Assembly (NCBI RefSeq): GCF_900167055.1
Contig: NZ_FUXP01000005.1
Coordinates: forward strand, 55,003-119,002
Direction: 5' to 3'
Length of the DNA stretch: 64,000 bases
From: Lysobacter spongiicola DSM 21749
GTDB taxonomy: Bacteria > Pseudomonadota > Gammaproteobacteria > Xanthomonadales > Xanthomonadaceae
In this document: piece after piece, positions 25,315-57,380 of the stretch
How positions within the stretch are numbered: the first letter of the stretch is position 1
Layout of the letters: the number at the start of each line of letters is the position of its first letter
Translations under genes and position numbers: made by a program
Notes under the pieces: model-generated
The model's database searches: none
Told to the model about the DNA's origin: nothing
The model's input: only the letters and a program-made list of their open reading frames with translations

Positions 25315-25716
25315 GTGATCGAGTTCTACCCCCAGATCAAGCACGTCCACATCATGATGGCGGTCGCCAGCGGCCTGCTGTTCGCGTTGCGCGGCGCAGG
25401 CGCGCTGGCCGGCATGCGCTGGCCGCAATGGACCGCGGTGCGCTGGACCAGTTACGGCATCGACACCACCCTGCTGACGGCGGCGCTGATGTTGCTGACC
25501 ATCCTGCCCGGCGGCATGTTCGCCAACGGCTGGCTGGCGACCAAGCTGGTGCTGCTGGTGGTGTACGTGGTGCTGGGCATCTTCGCCCTGCGTCGCGGCC
25601 GCACACGGGCAGTGCGCGCGGGTTTCTATGTCGCCGCCCTGGCCACCTTCGCAATGGTCTACTCCATTGCCCGCGCGCACCATCCAATGGGGTTCCTCTA
25701 TGGCCTTGTCGGCTGA
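25315..25716 (+). CDS. SirB2/YchQ family membrane protein
   Basis: 133 aa with 4 TM helices. The WLATKLVLLVVYVVLG segment is similar to E. coli YchQ. Confidence 0.55.
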   Translation: MIEFYPQIKHVHIMMAVASGLLFALRGAGALAGMRWPQWTAVRWTSYGIDTTLLTAALMLLTILPGGMFANGWLATKLVLLVVYVVLGIFALRRGRTRAVRAGFYVAALATFAMVYSIARAHHPMGFLYGLVG

Positions 25717-27712
25717 CCTGCCGGTGCCGGGCAGCCTGCCCGCACCCACGCCCCGGCCCGCCCGGGATCCGGACCGGCCGTTGCTGGACGCACTGTTCCT
25801 GGGGCCCTACGGCGAGAACGACACCCTGTTGGAGAAGCTGGTGGTGGAGTTCCTGCGCGACCACGTCTACTGGCGCCGCAACTTCCATCCCGAGGACCCG
25901 CCGGCGATCCCGACCCACGCGGCCCAGCAGCCGGAATACCAGGCCTTCGAGGCCCGGCTGCGGCGGGAACTGCACCAGCTGTCGGCCTCGCTGAAGAAGT
26001 CGGTGCCGTTCCACAGCCCCCGCTACATCGGCCACATGGCCTCGGACCTGCTGCTGCCCGGCCTGGCCGCGCAGATGCTCACCCTGCCCTACAACCCCAA
26101 CAACGTCAGCGAGGACGCGGCACCGGTCACCATCGACCTTGAGGTGCAGGTCGGCCTGCAACTGGCGCGCATGCTCGGTTATCCCAGCGACCCCGCGCAG
26201 CCGCAATGCGCCTTCGGCCACCTTACCTCTGGCGGCACGGTCGCCAACTACCAGGCGCTGCGGCTCGCGCTTGCGTTGAAGGCATTCCCGGTGGCCTTGC
26301 GGGCGGCGGGCGTGCCGGATATCGAGCTGCCCGGCGATGACTGGTCGGCCTTCAACGCCGGCCCTGACGCAGGCACCGAGCTGCTGGTGAAGTGGCAGGA
26401 CTGGCTCGCGGCGCAGTCGCCGCGCGACCGCAGGCGCTGGCGCGAGGCGGTGCAGGCCGAGCGGATCGAGCATCTGGGCATGGTGGGCTTCTTCGCCCGC
26501 CACCAGGACCTGCGGGTGCCGAAGGTGCTCGCGCCGATCACCGCGCACTACTCCTGGAGCAAGGGGCTGAAGCTGCTGGGCCTGGGGCGCGACCAGCTGG
26601 AATTGCTGCCGGAACGCGGCATGCGCTTGGATGCCGAAGCGCTGGAAGAGACGCTGCAGCGATGCGGGCGCGAAAGGCAGCCGGTGCTGATGGCGGTGGC
26701 GGTACTGGGCACGACGGAATACGGCACGGTCGACCCGGTCGATGCGGTGGTCGACGCACGCGCCCGCGCACTCGAACGTGGCCTGGGCTTCAGCGTGCAC
26801 GTCGACGGCGCCTGGGGCGGCTACCTCGCCACCCTGTTCCGCAACCCCGATGGCAGCCTGCGCGGCCTGTGCGAGGTGCGCGAGGACTACGCGCGCTTCC
26901 CGTTGCCGGAGGTACATGCCGCTTTCGCCGCGCTGGGGCGGACCGACTCGGTCACCGTCGACCCGCACAAGCTCGGCTACCTGCCCTACGGCGCCGGCGC
27001 TTTCATCTGCCGCGACCATCGCGCCACTGCGCTGCTGTCGGAGGCGGCGGACTATGTGTTCCGCGAGGGGCCGGTCGATCCGGACCCGGCGCGCAATTAC
27101 CTCACGCGTTACCGGCAGCTGGGCCAGTTCGTGCCCGAGGGTTCCAAGTCCGGCGCCGCCGCGGCCGCGGTATACGTGACACACAAGGTGCTGCCGCTGG
27201 ACCATGAGAACTTCGGCCGGCTGCCCCGGCAGACGGTGCTGGCGGCGGAGGCATTGCATGAAGCGACCCTCGGCCTGGCCCGTGAGCTGGACGGCGTGGC
27301 CCGTGTGGCCGTGCCGTTCGCCCCTGACAGCAACCTGGTGTGCCTGGCGATCAACCCGGCCGGCAACGCCGACCTGTCGGTGGCCAACGCCTTCGTGCGC
27401 AGGATCCACGACGAACTGCGCAGCGACCCGCGCCAGCCGCTCCAGCTCAAGGAGTTCTTCGGTTCGATGACGACGCTGCGGCCCGAAGCCGTCGGCGATG
27501 TCGAGATGGCACGGATCCTGGGCGCGATCGGGTTGGATCCGGACACGCTGGATCCCGACGGTGGCAACGATAACGATCGTCTGGTGATCCTGCGCCACAC
27601 ACTGATGAACCCCTACCTGGTCGACCACGCCAACGGCATCAGCTACATCGACATGTACCTGGCCTACCTGGGCCGGCGCATCCGCAGCCTGTTGTTGGTC
27701 CCGGCGGCGTGA
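25700..27712 (+). CDS. PLP-dependent group II amino-acid decarboxylase (large form)
   Basis: HLTSGGTVANYQALRLAL and DPHKLGYLPYGAG (PLP-Lys) motifs. ~670 aa. Confidence 0.75.
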   Translation: MALSADLPVPGSLPAPTPRPARDPDRPLLDALFLGPYGENDTLLEKLVVEFLRDHVYWRRNFHPEDPPAIPTHAAQQPEYQAFEARLRRELHQLSASLKKSVPFHSPRYIGHMASDLLLPGLAAQMLTLPYNPNNVSEDAAPVTIDLEVQVGLQLARMLGYPSDPAQPQCAFGHLTSGGTVANYQALRLALALKAFPVALRAAGVPDIELPGDDWSAFNAGPDAGTELLVKWQDWLAAQSPRDRRRWREAVQAERIEHLGMVGFFARHQDLRVPKVLAPITAHYSWSKGLKLLGLGRDQLELLPERGMRLDAEALEETLQRCGRERQPVLMAVAVLGTTEYGTVDPVDAVVDARARALERGLGFSVHVDGAWGGYLATLFRNPDGSLRGLCEVREDYARFPLPEVHAAFAALGRTDSVTVDPHKLGYLPYGAGAFICRDHRATALLSEAADYVFREGPVDPDPARNYLTRYRQLGQFVPEGSKSGAAAAAVYVTHKVLPLDHENFGRLPRQTVLAAEALHEATLGLARELDGVARVAVPFAPDSNLVCLAINPAGNADLSVANAFVRRIHDELRSDPRQPLQLKEFFGSMTTLRPEAVGDVEMARILGAIGLDPDTLDPDGGNDNDRLVILRHTLMNPYLVDHANGISYIDMYLAYLGRRIRSLLLVPAA

Positions 27713-28800
27713 GCACGACGGCCGCCTCGACCGAAGAGATGCGCCAGTGGACGCGGCAGTCGCTTGCGCGCCTTCGGCAGGAGGCCGCGCGGTCGGCAGA
27801 CACCCATCTGTTGAAACTCGAGTTCCCGGGCTTCCCCGGCATCGACTTCTACTTCAAGGACGAGGCCGCCCACCCGACCGGCAGCCTCAAGCACCGCCTC
27901 GCGCGTTCGCTGTACCTGTACGCGCTGTGCAACGGGCGGCTGCGGCGCGGGCAGCCGGTGGTCGACGCCTCCTCGGGCAGCACCGCGATCTCCGAAGCCT
28001 GGTTCGCGCGGTTGCTCGGGCTGCAATTCACCGCGGTGATGCCGGCTTGCACCGCACCGCGCAAGATCGCCGACGTACAGGCGCTGGGCGGCCACTGCGA
28101 CCTGGTCGACGACCCTGCGCAGGTCTACGAGCGGGCCGCCTGGCATGCCACCAACGGTGCCTGTCACCTCGACCAGTTCGGCCTGGCCGAACGCGCGACC
28201 GATTGGCGCGGCAACAACAACATCGCCGAGTCGATCATCGGGCAGTTGGCGGGAGAACCACATCCGGAACCGGCATGGATCGTCTGTGGCGCCGGTACCG
28301 GTGGGACGTCCGCCACCATCGGCCGCTACCTGCGCTACCGCAGCCTGCCCACCGGCCTGTGCGTCGCCGACCCTGCCGGAAGCGCTTTTATCCATGGCTG
28401 GCACCGTCGCGATCGCGATGCCACCTGCAGCCATCCCACGGTGATCGAAGGCATTGGCCGCCCACGTGTTGAACCCGGCTTCCTGTTCGACGTCGTCGAT
28501 GAAGTCGTCGAGGTGCCCGACACCGCCTCCATCGCCGCCATGCGGCTGCTCGAAGAGCACCTTGGCCGGCGCTATGGCGGATCCTCCGGCACCAACCTCG
28601 TCGGCTGCCTGCGGCTCGCCGCGCAGATGCGCGCCGATGGCATCGAGGGCAGCATCGTCAGCCTGCTGTGCGACCCCGGCGAGCGCTACGACCAGACCCT
28701 GTACGACCCGGCATGGCTGACACGACGCGGGCTGGACCCGTCCGGCGCCGAGGCCGCACTCCGTGCGATCATTGCCACCGGGGAATGGCACGGCCTGTAG
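27709..28800 (+). CDS. PALP-fold (cysteine synthase/threonine dehydratase superfamily) PLP enzyme
   Basis: GSLKHRLARS PLP-lysine motif and GTGGTSATIGRYL glycine loop. ATGA overlap with the upstream decarboxylase. Confidence 0.7.
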   Translation: MSTTAASTEEMRQWTRQSLARLRQEAARSADTHLLKLEFPGFPGIDFYFKDEAAHPTGSLKHRLARSLYLYALCNGRLRRGQPVVDASSGSTAISEAWFARLLGLQFTAVMPACTAPRKIADVQALGGHCDLVDDPAQVYERAAWHATNGACHLDQFGLAERATDWRGNNNIAESIIGQLAGEPHPEPAWIVCGAGTGGTSATIGRYLRYRSLPTGLCVADPAGSAFIHGWHRRDRDATCSHPTVIEGIGRPRVEPGFLFDVVDEVVEVPDTASIAAMRLLEEHLGRRYGGSSGTNLVGCLRLAAQMRADGIEGSIVSLLCDPGERYDQTLYDPAWLTRRGLDPSGAEAALRAIIATGEWHGL

Positions 28801-28925: not shown

Positions 28926-29588
28926 ATGAAAGCAGGGAAGCCAAAGTCGTCGGCAGTCTACGTCCGGGAATTCCGGGCGCGGATGCGCGAGGCCGGACTG
29001 GTCAAGAAGGACGTCTGGATCCGGCCGGAGTACGCCCGGGACCTGGCGGCGGCGGAACAGCGATTCCGCCAGATCCCAGGCACAGCTACGACCGCGGCTT
29101 CCGCGCCGGCCCAGCGGGACGACGCCGCCGCAACGCCGGGTTGGACCCTGCCCTCGCTCCAGCACGCCCTGGAAACCTCTCCCCTTGTGCAATCGGGCGG
29201 GATCGAAGTCCACCGCTCCGAAGGCGCCGACCCGACCCTGCGCCTGGTGATGCGCGAGTACGGCGACCTGCCTGTGTTTATCGCCGTGGGCGGCTGGCAG
29301 ATCGTGGTCCAGGTACTGATGTGGCCGGTCGACCACGTGACCGATCCGGCCGCCTTCAATGCCCACGTCCTGCGCACCCACAAGCTGCTGCCCCTGACCA
29401 CGATGGGCATCGAGCCTGTGGCCGGGGTAGCGAGCTACATCATGTTCGGCTCGCTGGGGACCCAGTCGAGCCTTGCCGACATCCTCTTCGAGATCGACAC
29501 GCTGGCCGAGAACGTCATCGCCTGTGTCGACGCCTACGGCTTCTTCCTGCGCGATGACGTGTTGCCGCAGGACGAGACACGCCCATGA
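28926..29588 (+). CDS. DUF2170 (YjfI-like) protein
   Basis: Position upstream of a PspA/YjfJ-like gene is as in E. coli yjfIJ. The C-terminal region is conserved. The DUF assignment is tentative. Confidence 0.5.
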   Translation: MKAGKPKSSAVYVREFRARMREAGLVKKDVWIRPEYARDLAAAEQRFRQIPGTATTAASAPAQRDDAAATPGWTLPSLQHALETSPLVQSGGIEVHRSEGADPTLRLVMREYGDLPVFIAVGGWQIVVQVLMWPVDHVTDPAAFNAHVLRTHKLLPLTTMGIEPVAGVASYIMFGSLGTQSSLADILFEIDTLAENVIACVDAYGFFLRDDVLPQDETRP

Positions 29589-30337
29589 AGCCCGGCAGCA
29601 CCTTCCTCGGCCGCCTCAGCGCGCAGATCGCGGGCATCGGCGAGATCGCCCGCGGGTGGAATGCCGGCCGTGAGCTGGACGATCGGATCCATCGGGTCGA
29701 TGAAGAGTTGCGCACCCTCCGCCGCGAGATGGACGTACTCAAGGCGCAGGCCCTCACCACCCGGGAGCGTCGCGATGCCCTGGCAGACAAGCTCCTGCAG
29801 CGGGAAACCCAGGCGATGGATGCGCTGCGGACCGGACATCCGGCGCTGGCAAGGGAGGTCGCCGCAGCCATCGTCGACCTGGAAGCCGAACACCGGGCCG
29901 AGCAGGCGCTACTGGCGGCCAACGCGAAGCAGGCGGCTGGCCTCCAGGCGATGGTGCGGCAGGGCGAGAACACGCTGAGACGCCTCAAGCACGAGCTCGA
30001 CCTGCTGCGCGCGTCGGAAGCGGTCGCCAGTGCCGAACAGGCTTTCGCCGGAAGCCAGGCCGGAGAAGGGGCCGGCATCCCCACCGCCATCGATTCCGCC
30101 GAGCTGTTGCGGGCGCGACAGGCCGCCGCGCAGTCCGATGCTGCTCTGGCGACCGGTTCCGCAGGTCCCGATCCGCTGGACGAGAAGCTGCGGAAAGCGG
30201 GAATCGCGCAGCCGGCGTCGCCGGTGGACGCCGTCCTGGCCCGGCTGGCGGAACAGGCAGGAGTCACCGCACGACCGCCGGGCCGGTCCGGGAAGCGATC
30301 CGGCACCGCGGCAAACAAGGAGAATCCCGATGAGTGA
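29585..30337 (+). CDS. PspA/IM30 family protein (YjfJ-like)
   Basis: All-helical coiled coil of 250 aa with a PspA-like N-terminal amphipathic region. ATGA overlap with the upstream gene. Confidence 0.7.
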   Translation: MKPGSTFLGRLSAQIAGIGEIARGWNAGRELDDRIHRVDEELRTLRREMDVLKAQALTTRERRDALADKLLQRETQAMDALRTGHPALAREVAAAIVDLEAEHRAEQALLAANAKQAAGLQAMVRQGENTLRRLKHELDLLRASEAVASAEQAFAGSQAGEGAGIPTAIDSAELLRARQAAAQSDAALATGSAGPDPLDEKLRKAGIAQPASPVDAVLARLAEQAGVTARPPGRSGKRSGTAANKENPDE

Positions 30338-30965
30338 GTTCCTGCTGACCGTCCTGACCTTCCCCACGCTCGCCTATAGCGTGGTGCTAGCGGTATGCAC
30401 GATCTACTGGGCGCTGGCGGCTACCGGGCTGGTGGAGACGGACGCACTTGATGGCCTGCTGGGTGGCGACGGCGATGTCGGCGATTCCAGTGGCGCTGCC
30501 GCCATGCTGTCCAGGCTCGGCCTGTCAGGCGTGCCGGTGATGGTGGTAATCACCGTGCTGGCCTTCGTTGGTTGGCTCGGCACCTACTTCGTGCACCTGC
30601 TGCTATTGGCGCACCTGGGCGACACCCTGCGCCCGGTCATCGGCGCGGCGGTCGCGGTCGCGATGCTGGTCCCCGGCATCTTCGCGACCTCCGCGCTGCT
30701 GCGCCCGCTGGGGCGCTGGTTGCTCAAGCTGCGTCCGCCACGCGACCCCTCGATCCTGGGGCGCGTAGCGGTGGTCAGCACCCCGGAAGTAAGCGTGGAC
30801 TACGGCATGGCGACCGTCGATGACGGCGGCGCCGGCCTGGTCCTGCAAGTGCGTGATCAGGAACCCGGCCGATTCAAACGCGGCGACCGGGTCGTGCTCA
30901 TCGAATACCTCGATGCGCAGCATGCCTACCGCGTGATACCGGAACGGCAGTTCCAGGCCCTGTAA
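30330..30965 (+). CDS. YqiJ/NfeD-like membrane protein with C-terminal OB-fold
   Basis: TM helices plus a C-terminal beta-rich OB-like domain (GRVAVVSTPEV...GDRVVLIEYLD). It is immediately upstream of the flotillin, as in yqiJK. Confidence 0.65.
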   Translation: MSEFLLTVLTFPTLAYSVVLAVCTIYWALAATGLVETDALDGLLGGDGDVGDSSGAAAMLSRLGLSGVPVMVVITVLAFVGWLGTYFVHLLLLAHLGDTLRPVIGAAVAVAMLVPGIFATSALLRPLGRWLLKLRPPRDPSILGRVAVVSTPEVSVDYGMATVDDGGAGLVLQVRDQEPGRFKRGDRVVLIEYLDAQHAYRVIPERQFQAL

Positions 30966-30992
30966 GAGTTCGATTCCCAAGGAGAGGTAGCA

Positions 30993-33008
30993 ATGAGTAT
31001 GTCCATGATCCTGCCGTTCGTAGTCGGCGCAGGCGTACTGCTGGTCGTGATGCTCGGCATCTTCGGCCTGTTCAAGGCCTTCTACGTCAAGGTGCCGCAG
31101 GGCACGGCGCTGATCGTCAACGATCTCAGCGCCACGCCCAAGGTCCGCTTCACCGGCGGCCTCATCATCCCGGTCCTCTACAAGGCCGAGCTGATGCAGA
31201 TCAGCCTGATCACCCTGCAGGTGGACCGCCGCGGACGGGAGGGCCTGATCTGCCGCGACAACATGCGGGCGGACATCTCCGTTGCCTTCTACCTGCGCGT
31301 CAACGAGACCCAGCAGGACGTGCTGCGCGTGGCCAAGGCCGTCGGCGCCGAGCGCGCGTCGGACAAGGCCGCCGTCGACGAGCTGTTCAACGCCAAGTTC
31401 TCCGAGGCGCTGAAAACGGTCGGCAAGAAGTTCGAATTCACCGAGCTGTTCGAGAAGCGCCAGGAGTTCCGCGACGAGATCATCAAGATCATCGGCAACG
31501 ACCTCAATGGCTACGTGCTCGAGGACGTGGCGATCGACTACCTCGAGCAGACCAAGAAGTCCGAGCTCGATCCGAACAACATCATGGATTCGGAGGGCAT
31601 CAAGAAGATCACCCAGATCACGGCGACGCAGAACGTCGTCACCAACGAGCTGGAACAGAACGAAAAGCTGGCGATCACCAAGAAGAACGTCGAAGCACGC
31701 GAGGCGACCCTGGCGCTGGAGCGCCAGCAGGCCGAGGCCGAAGCCCGGCAGCAGCGGGAGATCGAAACCATCCGCGCACGCGAGGAGGCCGAAACCGCGC
31801 GCGTCCGCGAGGAACAGCGGCTGGTTGCCGAGCAGGCGCGGCTGGAATCGGACGAGAAGATCCAGATCCGCGAGCAGAACGTGCATCGGGAAGTTGAGGT
31901 CGCCGAGCAGAACCGCCAGCGTGCGGTGGCGATCGAGGAAGAGCGCGTAGTGCGCGCCCGCGAACTGGAGAAGGTCACCACCGATCGCGAAGTCCAGCTG
32001 CAGGCGGTCGAGCGCGACAAGGTGGTCGAGGTCGGCAAGAAGGACGTGGCCAACATCACCCGCGAGCGCATCGCCATCGACAAGACGGTAGCCATCGAGG
32101 AAGAGCGCATCATGGAAGTGCGCGTCGTTTCCGAGGCCGAACGCGAGAAGCAGGCCCGGGTACTGGCCGCCGAGGCTGCGGCGCAGGAAGCCCTGGTCCA
32201 CAAGGTCAAGGAAGCAGAGGCCGCCGAAACCGCGGCCAGGCACCGGGCCGTGGAGCGGACCACGCTCGCGCAGGCCGAGCTGGAAGCAGCAACCCGCGAA
32301 GCCGAGGCCAAGCGGGTACTCGCCGACGGCGTCAAGGCCGAGCAGGCCGCCCCGGGGCTGGCCGACGTGCAGGTGCGCGAGGCGGAAGCACAGGCGATCG
32401 AGAAGCAGGGCGTCGCCGAGGCCCGCGTGATCGAAGCCAAGGCCGCCGCGCGACTGGTCGAGGGCACCAACGATGCCCGGGTACTTGCCGAGCGCATGGC
32501 CGCCGAGGCCGAAGGCACGGCGAAGCAGGGCCAGGCCAACGCCGCATCGGTCGAAGCCGTGGGCAGCGCCGAGGCCAACGTGACGGTCAAGAAGCTGACC
32601 GCGGAAGCCGAGGGCCTGACCCGGAAGTTCGAGGCGATCGACTCGCTGTCGGTCAACGCACGCAGCCACGAGGAGTTCCGCATGTCGCTGGAAACCCACC
32701 TCCAGCAGGCGCTCGCGTCGATCTCGGCGGGCAAGGACGTGGCCAAGGAGAACGCCGAGGTCATCGCATCGGCGTTGCGCAACGCGAACATCGACCTGGT
32801 CGGTGGCGACGGCGGCCTGTTCGAAGCCTTCTCCAAGTCGCTCTCGCTGGGCAAGGCCGTCGAAGGCCTGGCAGGCAAGAGCCCGATCGTGCAGGACCTG
32901 ATGAGCCGCTACCTGGGCGTCACCGCGGTTGAACCGGCACCCGCGAAGCTGCCGGGGCACGGCGCCGGGGAACGCGTCGCGCCGGCGATCCCGGACGCGG
33001 GCGCCTGA
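30993..33008 (+). CDS. flotillin/SPFH (band-7) family protein, YqiK-like
   Basis: N-terminal TM and SPFH domain, followed by a very long EA-rich coiled coil. 671 aa. Confidence 0.85.
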   Translation: MSMSMILPFVVGAGVLLVVMLGIFGLFKAFYVKVPQGTALIVNDLSATPKVRFTGGLIIPVLYKAELMQISLITLQVDRRGREGLICRDNMRADISVAFYLRVNETQQDVLRVAKAVGAERASDKAAVDELFNAKFSEALKTVGKKFEFTELFEKRQEFRDEIIKIIGNDLNGYVLEDVAIDYLEQTKKSELDPNNIMDSEGIKKITQITATQNVVTNELEQNEKLAITKKNVEAREATLALERQQAEAEARQQREIETIRAREEAETARVREEQRLVAEQARLESDEKIQIREQNVHREVEVAEQNRQRAVAIEEERVVRARELEKVTTDREVQLQAVERDKVVEVGKKDVANITRERIAIDKTVAIEEERIMEVRVVSEAEREKQARVLAAEAAAQEALVHKVKEAEAAETAARHRAVERTTLAQAELEAATREAEAKRVLADGVKAEQAAPGLADVQVREAEAQAIEKQGVAEARVIEAKAAARLVEGTNDARVLAERMAAEAEGTAKQGQANAASVEAVGSAEANVTVKKLTAEAEGLTRKFEAIDSLSVNARSHEEFRMSLETHLQQALASISAGKDVAKENAEVIASALRNANIDLVGGDGGLFEAFSKSLSLGKAVEGLAGKSPIVQDLMSRYLGVTAVEPAPAKLPGHGAGERVAPAIPDAGA

Positions 33009-33079
33009 CCCGGGCGCCTCCATTGCCGGCGGCAGCCCGTGCCGCCGCCGGTACCACCACCCAAGCAAGGATCCGCAAG

Positions 33080-33337
33080 ATGACCGCTGAACGCGACCAC
33101 CTGGAAATGGCCTTCCACTCCATCACCTGCTTCGCCGACGACGGCCGGCTGGATGCCGCCGAACTCGATCGCATCGTTGCCATCGCCGAGCGCGACGGCA
33201 CCATCAACGAGGACGAGACCCGCGTGCTGCACAACATCATCGCGCGCATCACGCCCGGCGAGATCGATGCATTGATGAAGATGCGCCTGGATGCCCTGCG
33301 CCGGAAGATCGGGCCGCCAGCGGAGCCCGCGGCCTGA
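33080..33337 (+). CDS. TerB-like small protein
   Basis: ADDGRLDAAELDRIVAIAERDGTINEDETRVL resembles TerB/DjlA-N tandem helical metal-binding repeats. Start chosen at MTAERDHL. Confidence 0.45.
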   Translation: MTAERDHLEMAFHSITCFADDGRLDAAELDRIVAIAERDGTINEDETRVLHNIIARITPGEIDALMKMRLDALRRKIGPPAEPAA

Positions 33338-33407
33338 GCCACCGCCGCCACCGCCTGCCCTCCCGAATGCAGCATGGAACGCCCGATAGCGCGGGCGAGG
33401 TCCCACG

Positions 33408-36400
33408 ATGACGTCTTCAGCAACCACCGACACCCTGCCCGACAACGCCCCCGAAACCGGATCAGTCGACCAGGCCGTCGCCCAGGGCGGCGCCTACGAA
33501 GTGCTGCGCCGGCGCCTTTCCGACCAGGGCGCGCGCCTGCGCGGCATCGCCGAGCGGATCAATGCCCGGCGGCTGGAGGAGTTCGGCAGCAGCCGGATGG
33601 AGGTGATCGGCCGCCTTCGCGTCCGCACAGAGAACAACTGCACGGGCCGGGACATCGTCCAGGTCGGCGACCTGCTGCTGTTCGGCTACAACGTCTTCAT
33701 CGGCTTGAAGACCACGACCCGGGTCGAGGACGTCTTCGGACTGTACCGGCTGGTGGAGAACGACGGCGCCTTCGACGTGGAGCAGGTCGCACTCGATGGC
33801 AGCTTCCTGGGCGATGCCCAGTTCCAGCGCGACTTCACCGAGTTGTATGCCTACTACAAGGACGCCCGCCTGCTGCAGTTGATCGTGCGCGAAGGCAAGC
33901 TCCTGGCCTCGTTCCAGATCGGCGAGCGCAGCAGCGATACCCGGGTGTTCCGATGGGCGCTGACGGCCCACGGCGAGGTGAAGTACATAGACGCCCGCGG
34001 CGAGCGCGACCTGACGATGCCGCCGCCGTTCGATTTCGAGTGGACGCGCGCGACGCGCGAGCTGATGGTCAGCGGGCGCCACCCGCACCTGAACGTACTC
34101 GACACCCTGTTCGTCGAGACCACCGGCGGCGACCTCACCATCAAGGTCGAGGACAACACCGAGACCGGCGAGGGCATCCACTCCGAACCGGTCGAGGACA
34201 AGACCCAGTCGCTCGATGACGCGACCTTCGATTTCGCCCGCGTCGGCTCGCTTGTCCTGCTCAAGGTCCTGCCCTACCGCGAAAACGAATGGCGTGGCTT
34301 CATCTACAACACGCTCACCGGCCGGGTACAGCGCAACGACGCGATCATCCAGGCGTGCGTCCAGCTGCCCGAGGACCACGGCATCATCTTCCCGGGCGGC
34401 TACTACCTGCAGAACGGCGAGCACAAGGCCTTCGACGCGGGCATGGACGGCATGCAGTTCAAGCGTGCGATCCGCTCGCCCAACGGCGAAGACGTGCTGT
34501 ACATCTTCTACGAACACCACGCCGGCAAGTCGGCCCTGTTTGTCTACAACATGATCCAGCGCGAGCTGCAGAACCCGGTCTTCGGCCACGGCTATGCGCG
34601 TCTGGCCGACGGGCGCATGGTGGTCTTCCACGCCGAGGGCGATGGCGCCACCCGCATCCATCCGATGCAGGTCTGGCAGACGCCTTTCGTGAGCGACGAG
34701 TTCGCGGCCAGCAGGCCACCCGGCAACACCTACCTGGGCCGGCTGGGCAACGCCGAGCTCGTGCGCGGCATCTCCAACCTGATGAACCTGTCGAGGCAGA
34801 TCGGCAGCGAAGAAGTATCGCTGCAGCGCTACCAGCTGCTCGCGCGTGACACCCGGCGGCTGTTCGATGCCCACCACTGGATCGACGACGCCCACTGCGA
34901 CGGCGTCGCCAGCCTGCTGCGCGAGATCGCCGCGACCGGCGAGTCCATGCTCGATGAGTTCGAGAAGGTGCAGGGCATCCGCCGGCAGTCCGCCCAGGCC
35001 CTGGTCGATGCGCGTACCGAACATGCGGCGCTGGTGGCGCGCCTTCTGCCCGACAACTGGTCGCAGGTGCAGGAGTTCGTCGACGCGCTCAACGAGATCA
35101 CCCGCCAGCGCGGCCACCTGCTCACGATCCGCGAGTACCGCTACATCGACGTTGCCGCCATCGACGCCCTTGGCGCACAACTGCAGGAGGAGCATGAGCG
35201 CATCGGCGCCGCTGCTGGCCGGTTCCTGGCGGGCGAGAAAGCCCTGGCACCGTTCATCGACCGGGTGCAGGCGCTCGACGAAGAAGCCGGAAAGGCCGAA
35301 ACCGCCACCGCCCTGGGTGAGCGCCTCGCCGCGCTGAGGGCGATGTCGGCGGACCTGGACATGCTGTCCGAGCTCATGGCGACCCTGAAGGTCGATGACG
35401 CCGCCCAGCGCACCCGGGTGGTGGAGGCCATATCGGCCATCTACGGCCGCCTCAACCAGGCCCGTGCCCGGGCCGAACAACGGCGCAAGACACTGGGGTC
35501 GGCCGAAGCGGTGGCCCAGTTCGCTGCCCAGTTCACCCTGTTCGGGCAGGCCATCACCGGCGCCCTCGGATTGGCGACCGATCCGGAGAAAGCCGACGAG
35601 CAGCTGTCGCGCCTGATGATCCAGCTCGAGGAGCTTGAGAGCCAGTTCGGCGAACACGAACAGTTCCTCGGCGTCATCCTCAGCAAGCGCGAGGAGCTGC
35701 TGGATACCTTCGAGGCGCACAAGCAGGCCTTGCTGGATGATCGCCACCGCAAGGCGCAGTCGGTTCTGGACGCGGCCAATCGCATCCTGGCGGGGCTCGA
35801 CAAGCGCACCGAGAAGTTCTCCAACCCCGACGAGCTCAACGCCTTCTTCGCCGGCGATCCGCTGACCCTCAAGGTCCGCGAGCTGGCCGAGCGGCTGCGG
35901 GCGCTGAAGGATTCGGTGAAGGCCGACGACATCGAGGCGCGCCTGAAGGGCGCGCGCGACCAGGCGGTGCGTGCCCTTCGCGATCGCGTGGATCTTTTCG
36001 AAGGCGGTGGCCAGGTCATCAAGCTCGGCCGCCACCGCTTCAGCGTCAATACGCAGTCACTGGACCTGACCATCCTGCCTCGGGGAGACCAGCTCGCGCT
36101 GCACCTGACCGGCACCGATTTCATGGAGCCGATCGACGACCCCGCCCTGGGGGAGCTGCGCGAATACTGGCAGGCCGGGTTGGAGTCCGAGTCGCCGACG
36201 CTGTACCGGGGCGAGTACCTCGCTGGCGAGATCATCTCCGCCGCGGCGACCGGCGCCGAGGGGCTGGAAGAGGACACTCTGCAGCGGCTGTCCGGTGACT
36301 TGCCCGCCCTGACCACGGCGGTCCGCGAGTTCGCGGCGCCACGCTACCGCGATGGCTACGAGCGCGGAATCCACGACCACGACGCGGCGCTCATCCTGCG

Positions 36401-38738
36401 TGCATTCCTGGTGCAGCGCGACCTGGCTGGGACCCTGGTCCACGCACCGGCACCGCGTGCGCTGGCGATGCTGTTCATGGCAGCCCATCGCAGCGACGAG
36501 GACGTCGCGCAATGGGCGGGCCGCGCGACCAGTGCATCGGCGATGCAACGACTGTTCGGCTCGCGCGCCAGCCTGGAGGCGCTGACCAGCGAGATGTCGG
36601 CGCGACTGCTGGCCTTCGTGGAGCAGGCCACGTTGCCATTCGAGCCATCCGTGGCCACTGCGGCCGCCAGCTTCCTCATCGACCAGCTGATCGGTGGCGA
36701 CGAGGCCTTCGCCTTGTCACGCCACGGCCGCGAACTGGCGGAGATGCTGCAGGACAGGATGGGCACGGCCGGGCTCCATACCCCCTTCCAGCACACCCTG
36801 GCGCAGCTGCACGACCGCCACGGTGCGCGCTGGCAGCACGTGGTGCACTGGCTGCAGGCGCTCTGCAACGATGCCGCGGCGGCCTCCATGGCCGCCTATG
36901 TGCCCGAAGCCGCTGCCTGGATGCTGACCCGGGAGACGCTTGCGTTCCAGGACCACGGCGTCGCCCTCCAGACCACCGTCGAGGGGCTGCTGGGGGAGCA
37001 CCCGCTTGTTTCCGAAGGCCGGATACAGCTGGCCGCGGACGACCTGCTGGCCCGGCTACGCACCCACAGGGAACGCTTCCTGCCGGGATACCGGCGGTAC
37101 CACGCGCTGCGGCACGAGATCGCGGCGCGCGAGCGCGACGCGCTCCGCCTGTCGGAGTTCCAGGCCCGCCCGTTGTCGTCGTTCGTCCGCAACAAGCTCA
37201 TCAACGAGGTCTACCTGCCGATCATCGGCGACAACCTCGCCAAGCAGATGGGCACCGCCGGCGAGGACAAGCGCAGCGACCTCATGGGCCTGCTGATGAT
37301 GATCTCGCCACCCGGTTACGGAAAGACCACGCTCATGGAGTACGTGGCCAGCCGCCTCGGCCTCGTCTTCATGAAGGTCAATGGTCCCGCCCTCGGCCAT
37401 GAAGTGCGCTCGGTCGATCCCGCACAGGCACCCGATGCCACCTCGCGCCAGGAGCTGGAAAAGCTGAACCTGGCTTTCGAGATGGGCAACAACGTGATGC
37501 TCTATCTGGACGACATCCAGCACACGCATCCCGAGTTCCTGCAGAAGTTCATCTCGCTGTGCGACGGTACCCGCCGGGTGGAAGGCGTATGGAAGGGCCG
37601 GACCCGGACCTACGACATGCGCGGCAAGAAGTTCTGCGTGGTCATGGCCGGCAATCCGTACACGGAGTCCGGCGAGGTCTTCAAGATCCCCGACATGCTT
37701 GCCAACCGCGCCGACATCTACAACCTCGGCGATGTCCTGGGCGGGATGGAGGACACCTTCACGCTGAGCTACATCGAGAACAGCCTGACCTCCAACCCGG
37801 TGCTGGCACCGCTGGCCACGCGCGACCTGGCCGACCTGTACCGGCTGGTGGACAAGGCCCGCGGCGAAGAGGTCTCCACCAACGACCTCTCGCATGCCTA
37901 CAGTGCCGCCGAGATCAACGAGATCGTGCAGACGCTGGTCCGGGTGATCAAGGTGCGCGACGTGGTCTACCGCGTGAACCAGCAGTACATCGCCAGCGCC
38001 GCCCAGGCCGACAAGTACCGCACCGAGCCGGCCTTCAAGCTGCAGGGCAGCTACCGCAACATGAACAAGCTGGTTGAGAAGATCTCGCCGGTGATGAATG
38101 ACGACGAGTTGCAGCAGCTGATCGGCGACCACTACCTGGGCGAGGCGCAACTGCTGACGGTCGGGGCGGAAGAAAACCTGCTCAAGCTGGGAGAGCTGCG
38201 GGGGGTCCTGACATCCGCGGAGCAGGAACGCTGGGAGCAGATCAAGCGCGACTTCCTGCGCAACAAGGCGATGGGGGCCGATGACGCCGACGTCGGCGGG
38301 CGCGTGGTGGCGCAACTGGCCGACATCGCCGGCGGGCTGCAGGCCATGGGCGAGGCCGCCCCTCGCCGGCAACTTTCTGCCACCGATGGTGCGCCGCAGC
38401 CGGATCCTGCGCCGTGGAAAGAGGCGCTCGCGCTCCTGGAGCGCGTGCTCGCCAGCCGCGCCGCCGACGACGCCACCGACGCTACCGGCCCGGACAGTGC
38501 CGGCACGCTGCTGAAGACGGCGGTCGAGCCGTTGATCGCCGCCATCCACTCCAGCCAGGGACAACAGGCACAGCTCAATACGGCGATGCTCCACCTGGCC
38601 AGCGCGATACGCGCCGGAATGAGCGTGCGCCAGGGCACCGGACGCAGGCCGCATACTCCGACGCCCGACGAGCGCCGACTGGACGAGGCACTCGAGCGGC
38701 TGCACGCCGGGCTGAAGGACGATCCGGCCAGCCCGTGA
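33408..38738 (+). CDS. giant (1776 aa) multidomain protein with an AAA+ ATPase domain (Mg-chelatase/ComM-like)
   Basis: Walker A ISPPGYGKTTLMEY (~res 1290), Walker B VMLYLDDIQHT and a sensor region VVMAGNPYTESGEV. The N-terminus is beta-rich and a long helical/coiled-coil middle follows. The ORF is uninterrupted with good codon bias. Confidence 0.8.
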   Translation: MTSSATTDTLPDNAPETGSVDQAVAQGGAYEVLRRRLSDQGARLRGIAERINARRLEEFGSSRMEVIGRLRVRTENNCTGRDIVQVGDLLLFGYNVFIGLKTTTRVEDVFGLYRLVENDGAFDVEQVALDGSFLGDAQFQRDFTELYAYYKDARLLQLIVREGKLLASFQIGERSSDTRVFRWALTAHGEVKYIDARGERDLTMPPPFDFEWTRATRELMVSGRHPHLNVLDTLFVETTGGDLTIKVEDNTETGEGIHSEPVEDKTQSLDDATFDFARVGSLVLLKVLPYRENEWRGFIYNTLTGRVQRNDAIIQACVQLPEDHGIIFPGGYYLQNGEHKAFDAGMDGMQFKRAIRSPNGEDVLYIFYEHHAGKSALFVYNMIQRELQNPVFGHGYARLADGRMVVFHAEGDGATRIHPMQVWQTPFVSDEFAASRPPGNTYLGRLGNAELVRGISNLMNLSRQIGSEEVSLQRYQLLARDTRRLFDAHHWIDDAHCDGVASLLREIAATGESMLDEFEKVQGIRRQSAQALVDARTEHAALVARLLPDNWSQVQEFVDALNEITRQRGHLLTIREYRYIDVAAIDALGAQLQEEHERIGAAAGRFLAGEKALAPFIDRVQALDEEAGKAETATALGERLAALRAMSADLDMLSELMATLKVDDAAQRTRVVEAISAIYGRLNQARARAEQRRKTLGSAEAVAQFAAQFTLFGQAITGALGLATDPEKADEQLSRLMIQLEELESQFGEHEQFLGVILSKREELLDTFEAHKQALLDDRHRKAQSVLDAANRILAGLDKRTEKFSNPDELNAFFAGDPLTLKVRELAERLRALKDSVKADDIEARLKGARDQAVRALRDRVDLFEGGGQVIKLGRHRFSVNTQSLDLTILPRGDQLALHLTGTDFMEPIDDPALGELREYWQAGLESESPTLYRGEYLAGEIISAAATGAEGLEEDTLQRLSGDLPALTTAVREFAAPRYRDGYERGIHDHDAALILRAFLVQRDLAGTLVHAPAPRALAMLFMAAHRSDEDVAQWAGRATSASAMQRLFGSRASLEALTSEMSARLLAFVEQATLPFEPSVATAAASFLIDQLIGGDEAFALSRHGRELAEMLQDRMGTAGLHTPFQHTLAQLHDRHGARWQHVVHWLQALCNDAAAASMAAYVPEAAAWMLTRETLAFQDHGVALQTTVEGLLGEHPLVSEGRIQLAADDLLARLRTHRERFLPGYRRYHALRHEIAARERDALRLSEFQARPLSSFVRNKLINEVYLPIIGDNLAKQMGTAGEDKRSDLMGLLMMISPPGYGKTTLMEYVASRLGLVFMKVNGPALGHEVRSVDPAQAPDATSRQELEKLNLAFEMGNNVMLYLDDIQHTHPEFLQKFISLCDGTRRVEGVWKGRTRTYDMRGKKFCVVMAGNPYTESGEVFKIPDMLANRADIYNLGDVLGGMEDTFTLSYIENSLTSNPVLAPLATRDLADLYRLVDKARGEEVSTNDLSHAYSAAEINEIVQTLVRVIKVRDVVYRVNQQYIASAAQADKYRTEPAFKLQGSYRNMNKLVEKISPVMNDDELQQLIGDHYLGEAQLLTVGAEENLLKLGELRGVLTSAEQERWEQIKRDFLRNKAMGADDADVGGRVVAQLADIAGGLQAMGEAAPRRQLSATDGAPQPDPAPWKEALALLERVLASRAADDATDATGPDSAGTLLKTAVEPLIAAIHSSQGQQAQLNTAMLHLASAIRAGMSVRQGTGRRPHTPTPDERRLDEALERLHAGLKDDPASP

Positions 38739-39499
38739 CCAGGCCCTACGCCCACCCCGCACCTGCCGCCACGCCCGAGGAGATCGAACTTGGCGGCCGC
38801 GGGATATCGGCGGCGGTCGACATGGACGCGATCAACACCCTGCTTGCCGGTCTGCCGACTTCCGCGCTGATGGCGGAACTCGACGCGATCGTGGAAGTCA
38901 TCGACGCCTCGGATACCGGCCGTGCCCGGCGCCGGGCCGGGTTGCTGGGCCGGCTGCTCGGACGTGACCTGGTGGCACGCGCCAATCCGGATGCCACGGC
39001 GGACCGGGTACGGGTACACCTGGCGCATGCAGCGGAGCATGCAGGTCTGCTTGCAAGCCACCTGTCTGCCCTGGAAGCGGTCTATTCACCGCTGCAGCAA
39101 CAGATCGACGCCATGGATGCATTCGTGGAAGCCAGCCGGAACACCATTGGCCCGGCACCTGACGAACCCGACCCTCGGCATCTGCTTGCCCACCGCCACC
39201 TCGAACGCTTCCAGGCTGTCGGCGTGTCCTGGCGACACACCCGCGCCCAGGTCCGGATGGCGGTGGACCACGTCCACCTGGTGCTGGACCGGTACCGCAA
39301 GGTGCGCGACCTGCTGGTTCCGCTCTGGCGCCAGCACCACGCCGGCGGCGCCCTGGAGGAACGGCTTCGGGAGCGACTGCCGGCAGGCGAGAACGACCGG
39401 CAAGCACTGCATCGATTGATCGCATCGCTGCAGACATCCCCGCCCACCACGCATACTCCAACCCATCCGAACCCGGCCGACAGGGAGCCATCGCCATGA
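38735..39499 (+). CDS. hypothetical protein (possible degenerate TelA-like), translationally coupled
   Basis: GTG overlaps the giant gene's TGA (GTGA) and its stop overlaps the telA ATG (ATGA). It is helical and carries GLLGRLLGRD, which resembles the TelA PIVGPLLDRM region. Confidence 0.45.
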   Translation: MTRPYAHPAPAATPEEIELGGRGISAAVDMDAINTLLAGLPTSALMAELDAIVEVIDASDTGRARRRAGLLGRLLGRDLVARANPDATADRVRVHLAHAAEHAGLLASHLSALEAVYSPLQQQIDAMDAFVEASRNTIGPAPDEPDPRHLLAHRHLERFQAVGVSWRHTRAQVRMAVDHVHLVLDRYRKVRDLLVPLWRQHHAGGALEERLRERLPAGENDRQALHRLIASLQTSPPTTHTPTHPNPADREPSP

Positions 39500-40593
39500 C
39501 CGAGTCCACCACCGACCTTCCCCCCGTGCAGCTGCCTGCCGGGCTCGGGGAAGAGACGCTCAAGCAACTCGGCCTGGTGCCCGCCGACCTCGAGCAGGTC
39601 ACCGCGATACATGCCGGCCTCGCCGACCTCTCGCCGACCGACACGCAGGGCTACGGCCGCGACGTGGCCGCGGCCACCACCCGCTTCTCCAGCGAGCTGC
39701 TCGACCAGGTCCGCAACCGCGACCTGGACGCGACCGGCGAAAAGCTCGGCGAAGTGGTGCGCATCGCGCGCAACCTCAACCTGCACAAGTTCAGCGCACG
39801 CTCCAAGTTGCCGATCGTCGGTCCCCTGCTTGACCGCATGCGCGACTCCCGCGGCGAGCTCGTCCAGAAGTTCAGCTCCACCAACGAGCAGATCGAGCAG
39901 CTGATGCGCGACGTGTCTCGTCAGCAGGATGACCTGGGCAAGCGTGTGCGCGATTTCGACCGCATGTACGAGATGGTCGCAACCGAACGCCACCAGCTCG
40001 GCCTGCACGTGGCAGCGGGAAAGATGAGGCTGCGCGAACTCGAAAATGAGCGCGCCTCGCTCGAATCCGCCGATGATCCGCAGTCGCGCACCCGGCGCCA
40101 GCAGATCGACACCACATTGCGCCTGCTGGACAAGCGCGTGGGCGACCTGCTCCTGATGCAGCATGCCGCCGACCAGTCGCTGCCGATGATCAGGATGATC
40201 CAGGCCAACGCGATGCAGTTGATCGAGAAGTTCACCTCGGTCCGTGACATCACCATTCCGGCCTGGAAGCGCAGCTTCGCCATCCAGCTGTCGCTCAACG
40301 AGCAGAAGCAGGCGGTCGAGCTGGCCACTGCGATCGATGACGCCACCAACGAGCTGATGCGGCGCAATGCCGACCTGCTGCACGAGAGTTCAGTGGCGAC
40401 CGCCAAGGCCAACCAGCGCGGTGTCATCGACCTGGAGACGCTGCAGCACGCCCACGACAAGCTGATCCAGACGGTCGAGGACGTGCGCCAGATCCATCGC
40501 GAAGGCATCGACCAGCGCCGGCAGGCCGAAGCCGACCTTGCACGCATGCGGGAAGACGTACAGAAGCGCCTGGCGGCACCCACCGTCGACTGA
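39496..40593 (+). CDS. telA: toxic anion resistance protein TelA (KlaB family)
   Basis: 365 aa, colinear with the TelA family (FSSELLDQV...LPIVGPLLDRMRDS...QHAADQSLPMIRMIQANA). Confidence 0.8.
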   Translation: MTESTTDLPPVQLPAGLGEETLKQLGLVPADLEQVTAIHAGLADLSPTDTQGYGRDVAAATTRFSSELLDQVRNRDLDATGEKLGEVVRIARNLNLHKFSARSKLPIVGPLLDRMRDSRGELVQKFSSTNEQIEQLMRDVSRQQDDLGKRVRDFDRMYEMVATERHQLGLHVAAGKMRLRELENERASLESADDPQSRTRRQQIDTTLRLLDKRVGDLLLMQHAADQSLPMIRMIQANAMQLIEKFTSVRDITIPAWKRSFAIQLSLNEQKQAVELATAIDDATNELMRRNADLLHESSVATAKANQRGVIDLETLQHAHDKLIQTVEDVRQIHREGIDQRRQAEADLARMREDVQKRLAAPTVD

Positions 40594-57275: not shown

Positions 57276-57311
57276 AGGCCATTCTCCTACCGTGTGCGCT
57301 TGCCCGGCAAT

Positions 57312-57325
57312 TTGACGTCGGTCAA
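57312..57325 (+). promoter_or_regulatory. FNR/anaerobox TTGACGTCGGTCAA (perfect palindrome)
   Basis: Lies 56 bp upstream of the ccoN ATG. Confidence 0.7.
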
Positions 57326-57380
57326 TCCGCGCCCGGTTCATCCGCCCGATAATGGGCGCATACACAACCACGGGTTCTCC

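Follow-up and report, generated by a model that had tools for sequence, protein, structure and literature searches.

The region from 33080 to 40593 of the window (the whole stretch of 64,000 nucleotides that was analysed) is the 3' half of a single same-strand cluster of eight genes (28926..40593, +). The cluster is best explained as a Bac-type phage-shock/flotillin membrane-stress system that carries a TelA pair restricted to Xanthomonadales, a reading to which we assign a probability of roughly 60%. Its function is most likely the ATP-driven remodelling or repair of the cytoplasmic membrane, with the TelA proteins as clients or adaptors. A previous sequence-only reading had presented the last four genes as a candidate uncharacterised system, but the operon class with PspA, flotillin and a giant ATPase is already known in outline (PMC11237479); what is newly reported here is the TelA-type pair of Xanthomonadales. 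The membrane-surveillance function proposed in that reading does fit the genomic context of PspA, NfeD-like and flotillin genes.

The gene order is DUF2170, PspA, YqiJ/NfeD-like, SPFH/flotillin, small acidic P1, giant ATPase, TelA-like P3 and TelA, with spacings between consecutive genes of -4, -8, 27, 71, 70, -4 and -4 nt. No intrinsic terminator was predicted within any intergenic gap of 28926..40593, and neither a promoter nor a convincing sigma-54 site was identified upstream of 28926. The PspA-like, NfeD/YqiJ-like and flotillin genes had been correctly noted upstream of the four genes but were placed outside the operon; with gaps of at most 71 nt, they are part of the same predicted operon-like cluster. 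All four ORFs of 33080..40593 are intact and lie on the + strand, and their GC3 of 0.76 to 0.89 makes them look like real coding sequence. The base composition is uniform, and the genes flanking the cluster are housekeeping genes. As described before, the four genes are tightly packed: 70 nt separate P1 from the 1776-aa ORF (33337 to 33408), the ATPase stop overlaps the P3 start by 4 nt at 38735 ("...agccc GTGA cc"), and the P3 stop overlaps the TelA start by 4 nt at 39496 ("...cgcc ATGA cc"). For comparison, we used 80 related loci from Xanthomonadales, Pseudomonas, Enterobacterales, Burkholderiales and Longimicrobium; upstream counts of the YqiJ-like and flotillin genes cover the 73 loci with enough flank, and downstream counts cover 70. 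Indeed, the overlap of the ATPase stop with the next start recurred in 29 of these loci (median offset, -3) and likewise in L084 and L086 and is, therefore, not a matter of chance.

The first gene (28926..29588, +) encodes a DUF2170/YjfI/BacA-like protein (Pfam PF09938, E 5.4e-43), a type of protein to which the literature ascribes a CesT/Tir-type chaperone fold; with the NCBIfam model "biofilm formation regulator BacA" it scored 234.6 bits, under the cutoff of 300. Its stop shares 4 nt with the start of the gene for an ESCRT-III-like PspA/IM30 protein of the YjfJ/BacB type (29585..30337, +; PF04012 [PspA_IM30], E 3.8e-19). The DUF2170 gene was found upstream in 46 and the PspA gene in 44 of 72 related loci. 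The third product, a putative YqiJ/NfeD-like membrane protein of 211 aa in the BacC position (30330..30965, +), was assigned from position and hydrophobicity: the N-terminal half of the translation is hydrophobic, the match to Pfam YqiJ_N is weak (E 0.19), and wherever a related locus extends far enough, the gene immediately precedes that of the flotillin. The Hymenobacter gene in this position carries the annotation "DUF1449 family protein". The flotillin-like protein of 671 aa in the BacD position (30993..33008, +) consists of a TM segment, an SPFH (band-7) domain and a long coiled coil. The full-length protein gave no Pfam match, and the N-terminal 220 aa were needed to recover Band_7 (residues 1-220; PF01145, E 7e-10, 39.7 bits with a cutoff of 23.6). 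Identities across the related loci holding the gene were 51 to 90%, with 44% for one truncated fragment, and the Streptomyces counterpart is annotated as "flotillin family protein".

The giant ATPase in the BacE position (1776 aa; 33408..38738, +) starts with an N-terminal DUF3686 domain (residues 44-490, 33537..34877, +; PF12458, E 6.8e-198, profile positions 2-448 of 448), described as beta-propeller repeats (PMC11237479). It is followed by a coiled coil with DUF7902 (residues 611-694, 35238..35489, +; PF25472, E 1.1e-25, and 2.6e-27 for the fragment alone), a helical middle part and a single AAA+ module, behind which the C-terminal tail is variable. The AAA+ core (residues 1296-1423, 37293..37676, +) matched AAA_5 (E 3.8e-6) and AAA (E 1.4e-5), both above the Pfam cutoffs. 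Walker A (PPGYGKTT, K1306), Walker B (LYLDD, D1368 and D1369), sensor-1 (N1416) and a further motif residue, R1434, are invariant among homologs; the DD instead of DE in Walker B might indicate that the enzyme hydrolyses ATP slowly or works as a switch. The module had been called Mg-chelatase/ComM-like, of which the AAA+ assignment held, but since no Mg-chelatase/ComM model matched the protein at E<=0.1, the narrower label is unsupported. The protein, which had not been placed in any described family, is by domain content a typical member of the PF12458 (DUF3686), PF25472 (DUF7902) and AAA+ group, with more than 6000 homologs. It is 54 to 77% identical in the 80 related loci and 42 to 59% identical over at least 90% of the length in Deinococcus, Streptomyces, Nonomuraea, Hymenobacter and Vibrio. 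NCBI names these homologs "DNA repair ATPase", and PF12458 is titled "ATPase involved in DNA repair". If these inherited names were taken at face value, the giant protein would act in DNA repair and the TelA genes would be unrelated passengers. However, nuclease, helicase and DNA-binding domains were not detected in the ATPase, the cluster holds no DNA-repair gene, and the fixed neighbours in every phylum examined are the YqiJ-like and flotillin membrane proteins; we regard a repair function as highly improbable. The similarity to RuvB was weak and at the level of Walker A (E ~1e-3, far below the cutoff).

The two genes behind the ATPase gene had been described as a degenerate and a canonical TelA, and both assignments were borne out. 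P3 (38735..39499, +; GTG start) is a 254-aa, all-helical TelA-like paralog from a fast-evolving family in which the motif G-x-x-G-R-L-L-G-R-D is invariant. Residues 152-202 aligned with TelA residues 211-261 in hhalign (E 6.8e-5, probability 63%), whereas PspA, used as a negative control, gave a probability of 0.1%. Moreover, 8 of 41 P3 family members matched Pfam TelA (best E, 4.1e-6), and the AF2 model (pLDDT 85.7) has long helical hairpins. These data support P3 as a diverged relative of TelA. The last gene of the cluster (39496..40593, +) encodes a TelA family protein of 365 aa (PF05816, E 7.7e-75; 252 bits with a cutoff of 30, profile positions 16-331 of 332), which is 53 to 78% identical in 29 related loci. 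To our knowledge, no biochemical activity has been established for TelA.

P1 (33080..33337, +; ATG start), whose N-terminus agrees with that of its homologs, is an acidic helical protein of 85 aa with two DG-x-(I/L)-D-x-x-E loops. It had been called TerB-like. Sub-threshold matches to TerB did occur in 33 of 68 family members, next to DUF533 (15) and EF-hand models (11 to 18), but P1 had no Pfam match above the cutoff; a search of the PDB with the P1 profile gave troponin C only (E 0.01). P1 belongs to a small family of stand-alone proteins, with 264 representatives at E<=0.001. The gene adjoins the ATPase gene in 15 of 80 loci, and in another 8 it has a different place within the locus. It is an optional accessory gene, and its product is weakly TerB/EF-hand-like.

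Which part of the cluster is constant? The YqiJ-like and flotillin genes were upstream of the ATPase gene in 73 of 73 loci with enough flank, and the same triad was found in plasmid-borne copies in Streptomyces, Hymenobacter and Deinococcus, in Hymenobacter accompanied by "chaperone Tir" and PspA. Sequence comparison shows the triad to be an ancient core kept across phyla and the PspA dyad, the small protein and the post-ATPase genes to be optional. Behind the ATPase, 70 loci had the TelA-like/TelA pair (29), PLD (31), rhomboid (19) or none of these (10); the PLD and rhomboid identities were confirmed by Pfam. TelA-like and TelA were never found singly. In all 29 loci both were directly 3' of the ATPase gene, with P3 always between ATPase and TelA, which shows a strictly paired set that, judged from the overlaps, is translationally coupled with the ATPase. 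All 29 loci belong to Xanthomonadales; elsewhere, the slot is filled by a rhomboid protease, a PLD hydrolase or both. Of 28 TelA-bearing loci, 18 were without an adjacent PspA dyad; the TelA pair therefore does not have to work via PspA.

These counts bear on a strict version of the earlier proposal, namely that P1, the ATPase, P3 and TelA form a self-contained, undescribed Ter-type stress or anti-phage system that adjoins PspA, NfeD and flotillin genes by chance. The conserved overlapping codons, the genuine TelA and the recurring weak TerB matches would fit such a system, and the bac genes PA3728-PA3732 of Pseudomonas aeruginosa are up-regulated in all phage-infected samples (PMC12041424). 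However, conservation does not follow these four genes as a unit: the ATPase never occurred without the YqiJ-like and flotillin genes (73 loci), TelA was missing in 41 of 70 ATPase loci, and the small protein was not beside the ATPase in 65 of 80. PADLOC models, run on the eight proteins, matched none of them, the window yielded no TerD-like sequence, and 50,697 phage records contained no copies; 72,556 plasmid records contained 13, all on large plasmids or chromids. Together with the uniform base composition and the housekeeping flanks, this makes a Ter-type system a remote prospect. Somewhat less improbable, though still unlikely, is an abortive-infection-type defence by the whole cluster, in which PspA, flotillin and the ATPase would sense membrane damage and trigger an exchangeable effector (PLD nuclease/lipase, rhomboid or the TelA pair). 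A conserved core with a variable 3' position is typical of conflict systems, PLDc_2-family proteins include nucleases, and the induction by phages would be explained as well. But membrane stress in general evokes the phage-shock response, no toxic activity is known for TelA, and the cluster, for which PADLOC again gave no matches, is conserved in several phyla, with no copies in the phage records and few in those of plasmids. Moreover, bac mutants of P. aeruginosa have biofilm, rhamnolipid and virulence rather than phage phenotypes (PMC10948618).

In the membrane-stress system that we favour, the flotillin/NfeD pair would build a scaffold on the cytoplasmic membrane, and PspA, as an ESCRT-III-like polymer, would bind to stressed membrane. 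The ATPase could dock via its beta-propeller and coiled coil and spend ATP to assemble, remodel or dismantle helical assemblies, much as Vps4 does. The slot behind it would be filled by exchangeable membrane-acting partners: a rhomboid protease, a PLD hydrolase or, in the window, a TelA-like/TelA heterodimer. The TelA pair might be a peripheral helical client or adaptor that is placed on damaged membrane, or removed from it, by the ATPase, and the small acidic P1 may report an influx of divalent cations.

Among the closest known systems is bacABCDEF of P. aeruginosa (PA14_16140-16200 / PA3732-PA3727; Mace 2008, PMC2587700; Wallart et al. 2024, PMC10948618), which is co-transcribed and of which BacB-F accumulate in a bacA mutant (PMC10948618). 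The order BacA (DUF2170), BacB (PspA), BacC (YqiJ-like), BacD (flotillin-like) and ATPase in the BacE position is that of the cluster, and the proteins of the Pseudomonas paraeruginosa locus L036 are 37 to 65% identical to those of the window. From the gene order of L036, we infer that the giant ATPase corresponds by position to BacE and PLD/HKD to BacF. P. aeruginosa-type loci have the PLD/HKD protein right behind the ATPase and no TelA-like/TelA pair, and L036 is without P1, whereas the window has P1 and the TelA pair but no PLD.

CesT/Tir-PspA-flotillin-YqiJ operons with a "novel AAA+ ATPase with beta-propeller and coiled coil" have been described (Ravi et al. 2024, PMC11237479), and all four defining components of this class were found in the window. 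The "abbreviated" version of that study (flotillin, YqiJ and ATPase) is the core of all loci here, and its PLD variant was recovered as well. TelA and TerB have 0 occurrences in its text; to the description given there, our analysis adds the TelA pair, the small TerB/EF-hand-like protein and the rhomboid variant. The same study proposed the analogy to ESCRT-III/Vps4 of archaea and eukaryotes, where likewise an ESCRT-III-superfamily polymer, here PspA, is encoded with an AAA+ ATPase; a Vps4-like ATPase for bacterial PspA is not known according to a review (PMC7619361). By the tests applied here, the giant ATPase is not a Vps4 homolog: it lacks an MIT domain and combines its one AAA+ module with a huge N-terminus of beta-propeller and coiled coil. 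Many loci here differ further in holding the ATPase without an adjacent PspA.

What the cluster has in common with terZABCDE and kilA/telA/telB (klaABC) of RK2 is a genuine TelA family protein and, possibly, a minimal TerB-like one. It differs from classical tellurite-resistance systems in being chromosomal with housekeeping flanks, and no TerC or TelB/KlaB is among its eight genes. The telA genes of those systems, as far as we know, are not accompanied by genes for an AAA+ ATPase, a flotillin or PspA. Finally, Escherichia coli yqiJK and Bacillus subtilis yuaF-floT resemble the cluster in the order of a small NfeD/YqiJ-type membrane protein and a TM-SPFH-coiled-coil protein. We know of no giant ATPase in these pairs, whereas the SPFH-NfeD-type pair of the cluster is always followed by one, here of 1776 aa.

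Eight genes lie on the forward strand of the window between 28926 and 40593. The last four, which the sequence-only reading had singled out as an operon with overlapping stop and start codons, are indeed all intact and encode an 85-aa protein, here called P1 (33080-33337), a 1776-aa giant ATPase (33408-38738), a 254-aa TelA-like protein with a GTG start, here called P3 (38735-39499), and a 365-aa TelA (39496-40593). The ATPase/P3 junction at 38735 reads ...agcccGTGAcc and the P3/TelA junction at 39496 reads ...cgccATGAcc; therefore, both are 4-nt stop/start overlaps, as claimed. Upstream, on the same strand, are genes for a DUF2170 protein (28926-29588; PF09938, E 5.4e-43), PspA/IM30 (29585-30337; PF04012, E 3.8e-19), a 211-aa YqiJ/NfeD-like membrane protein (30330-30965) and a 671-aa flotillin-like protein. 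The first two adjoin with a 4-nt overlap and make up a dyad of a CesT/Tir-like protein and PspA. The YqiJ assignment is putative: the YqiJ_N match had an E value of just 0.19, while the conserved position and the DUF1449 annotation of the Hymenobacter counterpart speak for it. The flotillin-like protein has a TM-SPFH-coiled-coil layout, with SPFH/Band_7 on residues 1-220 (E 7e-10, above cutoff), a hydrophobic stretch at the N terminus and a long coiled coil rich in E, A and R; a PDB sequence search with it gave no match. The spacing along the eight genes is -4, -8, 27, 71, 70, -4 and -4 nt, and the intergenic gaps contain no predicted terminator. Scans for sigma-54 and sigma-70 promoters and for terminators were of no help; with 3 mismatches, the sigma-54 pattern matched about as often as by chance. 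Base composition is flat across the window at about 68% G+C, and GC3 is 0.76 to 0.89 across P1, the giant ATPase, P3 and TelA.

The giant ATPase had been said to carry a Mg-chelatase/ComM-like AAA+ module and to fit no described family. The AAA+ part of this description held, since one AAA+ module was found at residues 1296-1423 with both AAA_5 and AAA above cutoff, but the Pfam scan gave no match to the Mg_chelatase or ComM profiles. The claim about the family was wrong: the protein matches PF12458 (DUF3686) end to end on residues 44-490 (E 6.8e-198) and PF25472 (DUF7902) on residues 611-694, and it has more than 6,000 database homologs, the closest of which, from a Lysobacter/Novilysobacter strain, is 82% identical. 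In an alignment of 20 sequences, Walker A (PPGYGKTT), Walker B (LYLDD), N1416 and R1434 were invariant. Walker B usually reads hhhhDE; here (residues 1364-1371, window 37500-37520) it reads LYLDD with D1368 and D1369 invariant, and this motif may make for slow hydrolysis or switch-like behavior of the ATPase. A PDB sequence search gave only Walker-A-level matches and no related solved structure beyond the P-loop. The term "DUF3686" does not occur in the searchable literature. The domain has been assigned as a beta-propeller (PMC11237479); with DUF3686, DUF7902 and AAA_5/AAA, the protein has the makeup of the large AAA+ ATPase with an N-terminal beta-propeller and a coiled coil found in the operon class of Ravi et al. 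Most of the homologs are named "DNA repair ATPase", which would suggest a role in DNA repair, but neither the domains nor the context of the giant ATPase support one. Also, in the phyla examined, "DNA repair ATPase" or "DNA repair protein" as a name for PF12458 had no backing from domains or gene context. The name, carried by thousands of proteins, thus appears unfounded and looks like a propagated misannotation.

The last gene had been read as a canonical TelA, and in fact its product matched PF05816 over nearly the full length of the profile (E 7.7e-75, positions 16-331 of 332), scoring 252.5 bits where the cutoff is 30, which places it in the TelA family. P3 had been called a degenerate TelA. 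It had no Pfam match even at E<=10 and thus does not reach the PF05816 gathering score, but the relationship itself stood: hhalign aligned P3 with the TelA family over 51 columns (E 6.8e-5, probability 63%), including a common VRD-x3-P-x-W-(R/K)-Q motif, and 8 of 41 P3 relatives matched Pfam TelA directly (best E 4.1e-6). Since the P3 profile matched PspA with a probability of just 0.1%, the match to TelA is not a generic helical artefact. On these grounds we accept P3 as a putative diverged and shortened TelA-like paralog that falls outside the family by the curated criterion. It evolves fast, with 56% identity to its closest relative versus 82% for the ATPase. AF2 models P3 with confidence (pLDDT 85.7) as a set of long helical hairpins; in the PDB, Foldseek found no comparable fold, just generic bundles of helices (best E 0.045), and the TelA profile had no match among PDB sequences, hence no solved TelA structure for comparison. 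We also considered TelA and P3 as relatives of PspA, but hhalign gave probabilities below 1%, and an ESCRT-III-like TelA found no sequence support.

P1, described earlier as TerB-like, belongs to a small family of stand-alone proteins, for which a search of 1.84 billion proteins gave 264 representatives at E<=0.001, and the family keeps two conserved DG-x-(I/L)-D-x-x-E loops. The protein of the window passes no Pfam cutoff and had no match to TerB (PF05099); below threshold it matched EF-hand_5 (E 0.026) and DUF533 (E 0.14), which we take to be a TerB-related family. Weak Pfam matches among 68 relatives were to TerB in 33 (best E 5.8e-4), to DUF533 in 15 and to EF-hand in 11 to 18, and the sole PDB match of the P1 profile was troponin C (E 0.01), with no TerB structure. 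The two loops would suit TerB as well as a pseudo-EF-hand, and TerB-like is a plausible but tentative label for P1. Kinship of P1 with the N-terminal domain of phospholipase D-like (PLD) proteins was rejected (hhalign probability 9%).

The 20-sequence ATPase alignment was used to collect related loci. The best 80 of the 432 that were confirmed, which belong to Lysobacteraceae, Pseudomonas and relatives, Enterobacterales, Burkholderiales and Longimicrobium, were scored for synteny by tblastn with the proteins of the window. The proteins at the position of the ATPase were 54 to 77% identical to it in these best 80 of 432. In all 73 loci with enough flank, the ATPase was preceded on its own strand by the YqiJ-like and flotillin genes; DUF2170 was upstream in 46 of 72 and PspA in 44 of 72. 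P1 adjoined the ATPase in 15 loci of the best 80 of 432 and was elsewhere in the locus in 8 more. After the ATPase came P3 and TelA, never one of them singly, in 29/70 loci, a PLD/HKD protein in 31/70, a rhomboid protease in 19/70 and none of these in 10/70. In addition, two distant relatives of P3, retrieved independently, are each encoded with 4-nt overlaps between TelA and a DUF3686 gene. The genes predicted by the sequence-only reading are real and most of its homology guesses right, but the boundary of its four-gene unit was wrong: the fixed core is YqiJ-like protein, flotillin and ATPase, around which the PspA dyad, P1 and whatever follows the ATPase vary as modules. Outside these loci, large replicons of Streptomyces, Nonomuraea, Hymenobacter, Deinococcus and Vibrio carry full-length ATPase homologs with 42 to 59% identity. 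For Streptomyces, Hymenobacter and Deinococcus, the annotation likewise puts a small protein and flotillin together with the ATPase, in Hymenobacter with "chaperone Tir" and PspA in front; TelA was in none of them.

Pfam confirmed the downstream partners (PLDc_2, E 1e-29; rhomboid, E 3e-19). The rhomboid intramembrane protease of Pseudomonas, Enterobacterales and some other lineages is encoded directly 3' of the ATPase with a 4-nt overlap, where the P3/TelA pair sits in the window (among L027-L079, e.g., L027:15256-15813 and L053:14958-15527); it has no counterpart in the window and never occurred together with TelA (0/70). The commonest gene 3' of the ATPase encodes a PLD/HKD protein of about 230 aa (PLDc_2) with a conserved N-terminal helical domain (L001:17168-17872, L036:15219-15923 and about 30 other loci) and is likewise missing from the window. 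TelA and PLD occurred together in 4 loci. Since the close relatives L001, L002 and L004 carry PLD after TelA, its lack in the window suggests a recent loss. A weak PLD-like tblastn match at 58556-58687 (44% over 50 aa, E 7e-4) was spurious, being located within the gene for cytochrome oxidase subunit I (57294-58892; COX1, E 5e-113).

All named TelA-bearing loci are from Xanthomonadales, and two metagenome-assembled genomes (MAGs) carry a phylum label only. PspA was not adjacent in 18 of 28 TelA-bearing loci, and these loci without the dyad (L007, L009-L014, L016, L019, L020, L022, L033, L038, L046-L048, L060 and L076) belong to the Stenotrophomonas/Xanthomonas/Luteimonas clade; in most of them the operon follows directly on the housekeeping genes truA and trpF. 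In the Stenotrophomonas clade, it is a five-gene YqiJ-flotillin-ATPase-P3-TelA operon that begins at the YqiJ-like gene, 3' of truA-trpF, with no PspA nearby. This absence could mean that the TelA pair substitutes for PspA or could go back to a single ancestral loss. In the Longimicrobium MAGs (L005 and L008, Gemmatimonadota), the ATPase and flotillin genes are 73% identical to those of the window, with Pseudomonas lower at about 63%, which points to recent horizontal transfer or mis-binned contigs.

A defense system keeps some probability through the variable position 3' of the ATPase and the induction of PA3728-PA3732, which were up in all phage-infected samples (PMC12041424). However, positive support for it is lacking: PADLOC-DB 2.0 gave 0 matches at E<=0.01 for all eight proteins, and the cluster is not on a mobile element; also, phage records contained no gene for the giant ATPase. 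Furthermore, its flanks are housekeeping genes (HemN, qNor, a PLP decarboxylase/PALP pair, UbiD, U32 peptidase, ketoacyl synthase and COX1). Just upstream, at 25628-28800, a 694-aa PLP-dependent decarboxylase (Pyridoxal_deC and tyr_de_CO2_C) and a PALP enzyme are encoded by genes with a 4-nt stop/start overlap, and UbiD follows TelA at 40688. Since the best 80 of 432 loci never had this pair or UbiD beside the cluster, its chromosomal position is not conserved.

What the domains do and which genes surround them best support the reading as a machine that uses ATP in membrane stress or membrane remodeling, with the TelA-like/TelA pair as its putative partner, client or adaptor in this lineage. 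TelA is here always accompanied by a diverged paralog, and its translation is coupled to that of a conserved AAA+ machine of the membrane, which leads to the testable hypothesis that the ATPase associated with flotillin and PspA has a TelA heterodimer as client or adaptor. Elsewhere, the widespread TelA has been linked to tolerance of tellurite and cell-wall antibiotics, and to our knowledge no mechanism is established for it. A bolder version, to which we give about one chance in seven, is that the pair forms a second, PspA-independent membrane-binding helical assembly that is loaded or recycled by the giant ATPase. If so, this would be the first mechanistic context for TelA, and the DUF3686 ATPase would be the missing bacterial Vps4 counterpart for such polymers. 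In lineages such as Stenotrophomonas, the TelA dyad could then functionally replace the CesT/PspA dyad. By analogy with ALG-2 in eukaryotic ESCRT-mediated repair, P1 could be a divalent-cation sensor of membrane breach. According to a 2025 review, a Vps4-like ATPase for bacterial PspA is not known (PMC7619361); for the PspA/ESCRT-III field, bacteria have seemed to lack a partner that spends energy, and the giant ATPase is the best candidate for it.

Compared with the classical Ter system (terZABCDE), the cluster is different: neither TerC nor TerD was found among its eight genes and the scanned flanking genes, and tblastn of the window with a TerD from L081, a Streptomyces sp. NBC_00080 plasmid, gave nothing (best E 0.72). 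On that plasmid, the TerD gene (L081:16122-16655) lies about 4 kb 3' of the flotillin-ATPase pair on the opposite strand; since Streptomyces genomes have many TerD genes, this is probably coincidental. The operon class of Ravi et al. agrees with the loci found here in its variant with a PLD hydrolase and in its abbreviated flotillin-YqiJ-ATPase operons (PMC11237479). That paper differs in making no mention of TelA or TerB, whereas the cluster has TelA and a putatively TerB-like protein, and we found no literature that joins TelA with PspA, flotillin and AAA+ together. In P. aeruginosa, the bacABCDEF genes are transcribed together and a bacA mutant accumulates their products; biofilm, rhamnolipid and virulence phenotypes have been tied to the cluster (PMC10948618). 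From the gene order in L036, we infer that the giant ATPase is the counterpart of BacE and the PLD protein probably that of BacF; an NCBIfam scan of the cluster proteins gave only a sub-threshold BacA match. The underlying system is already known, described computationally and only in part characterized by experiment, and its variable partners (TelA pair, rhomboid and PLD) show how it may have diversified. New in this system are the TelA pair and the small TerB/EF-hand-like protein, and the useful point is the strict, translationally coupled link of a TelA heterodimer-like pair with a flotillin/PspA-associated AAA+ ATPase.
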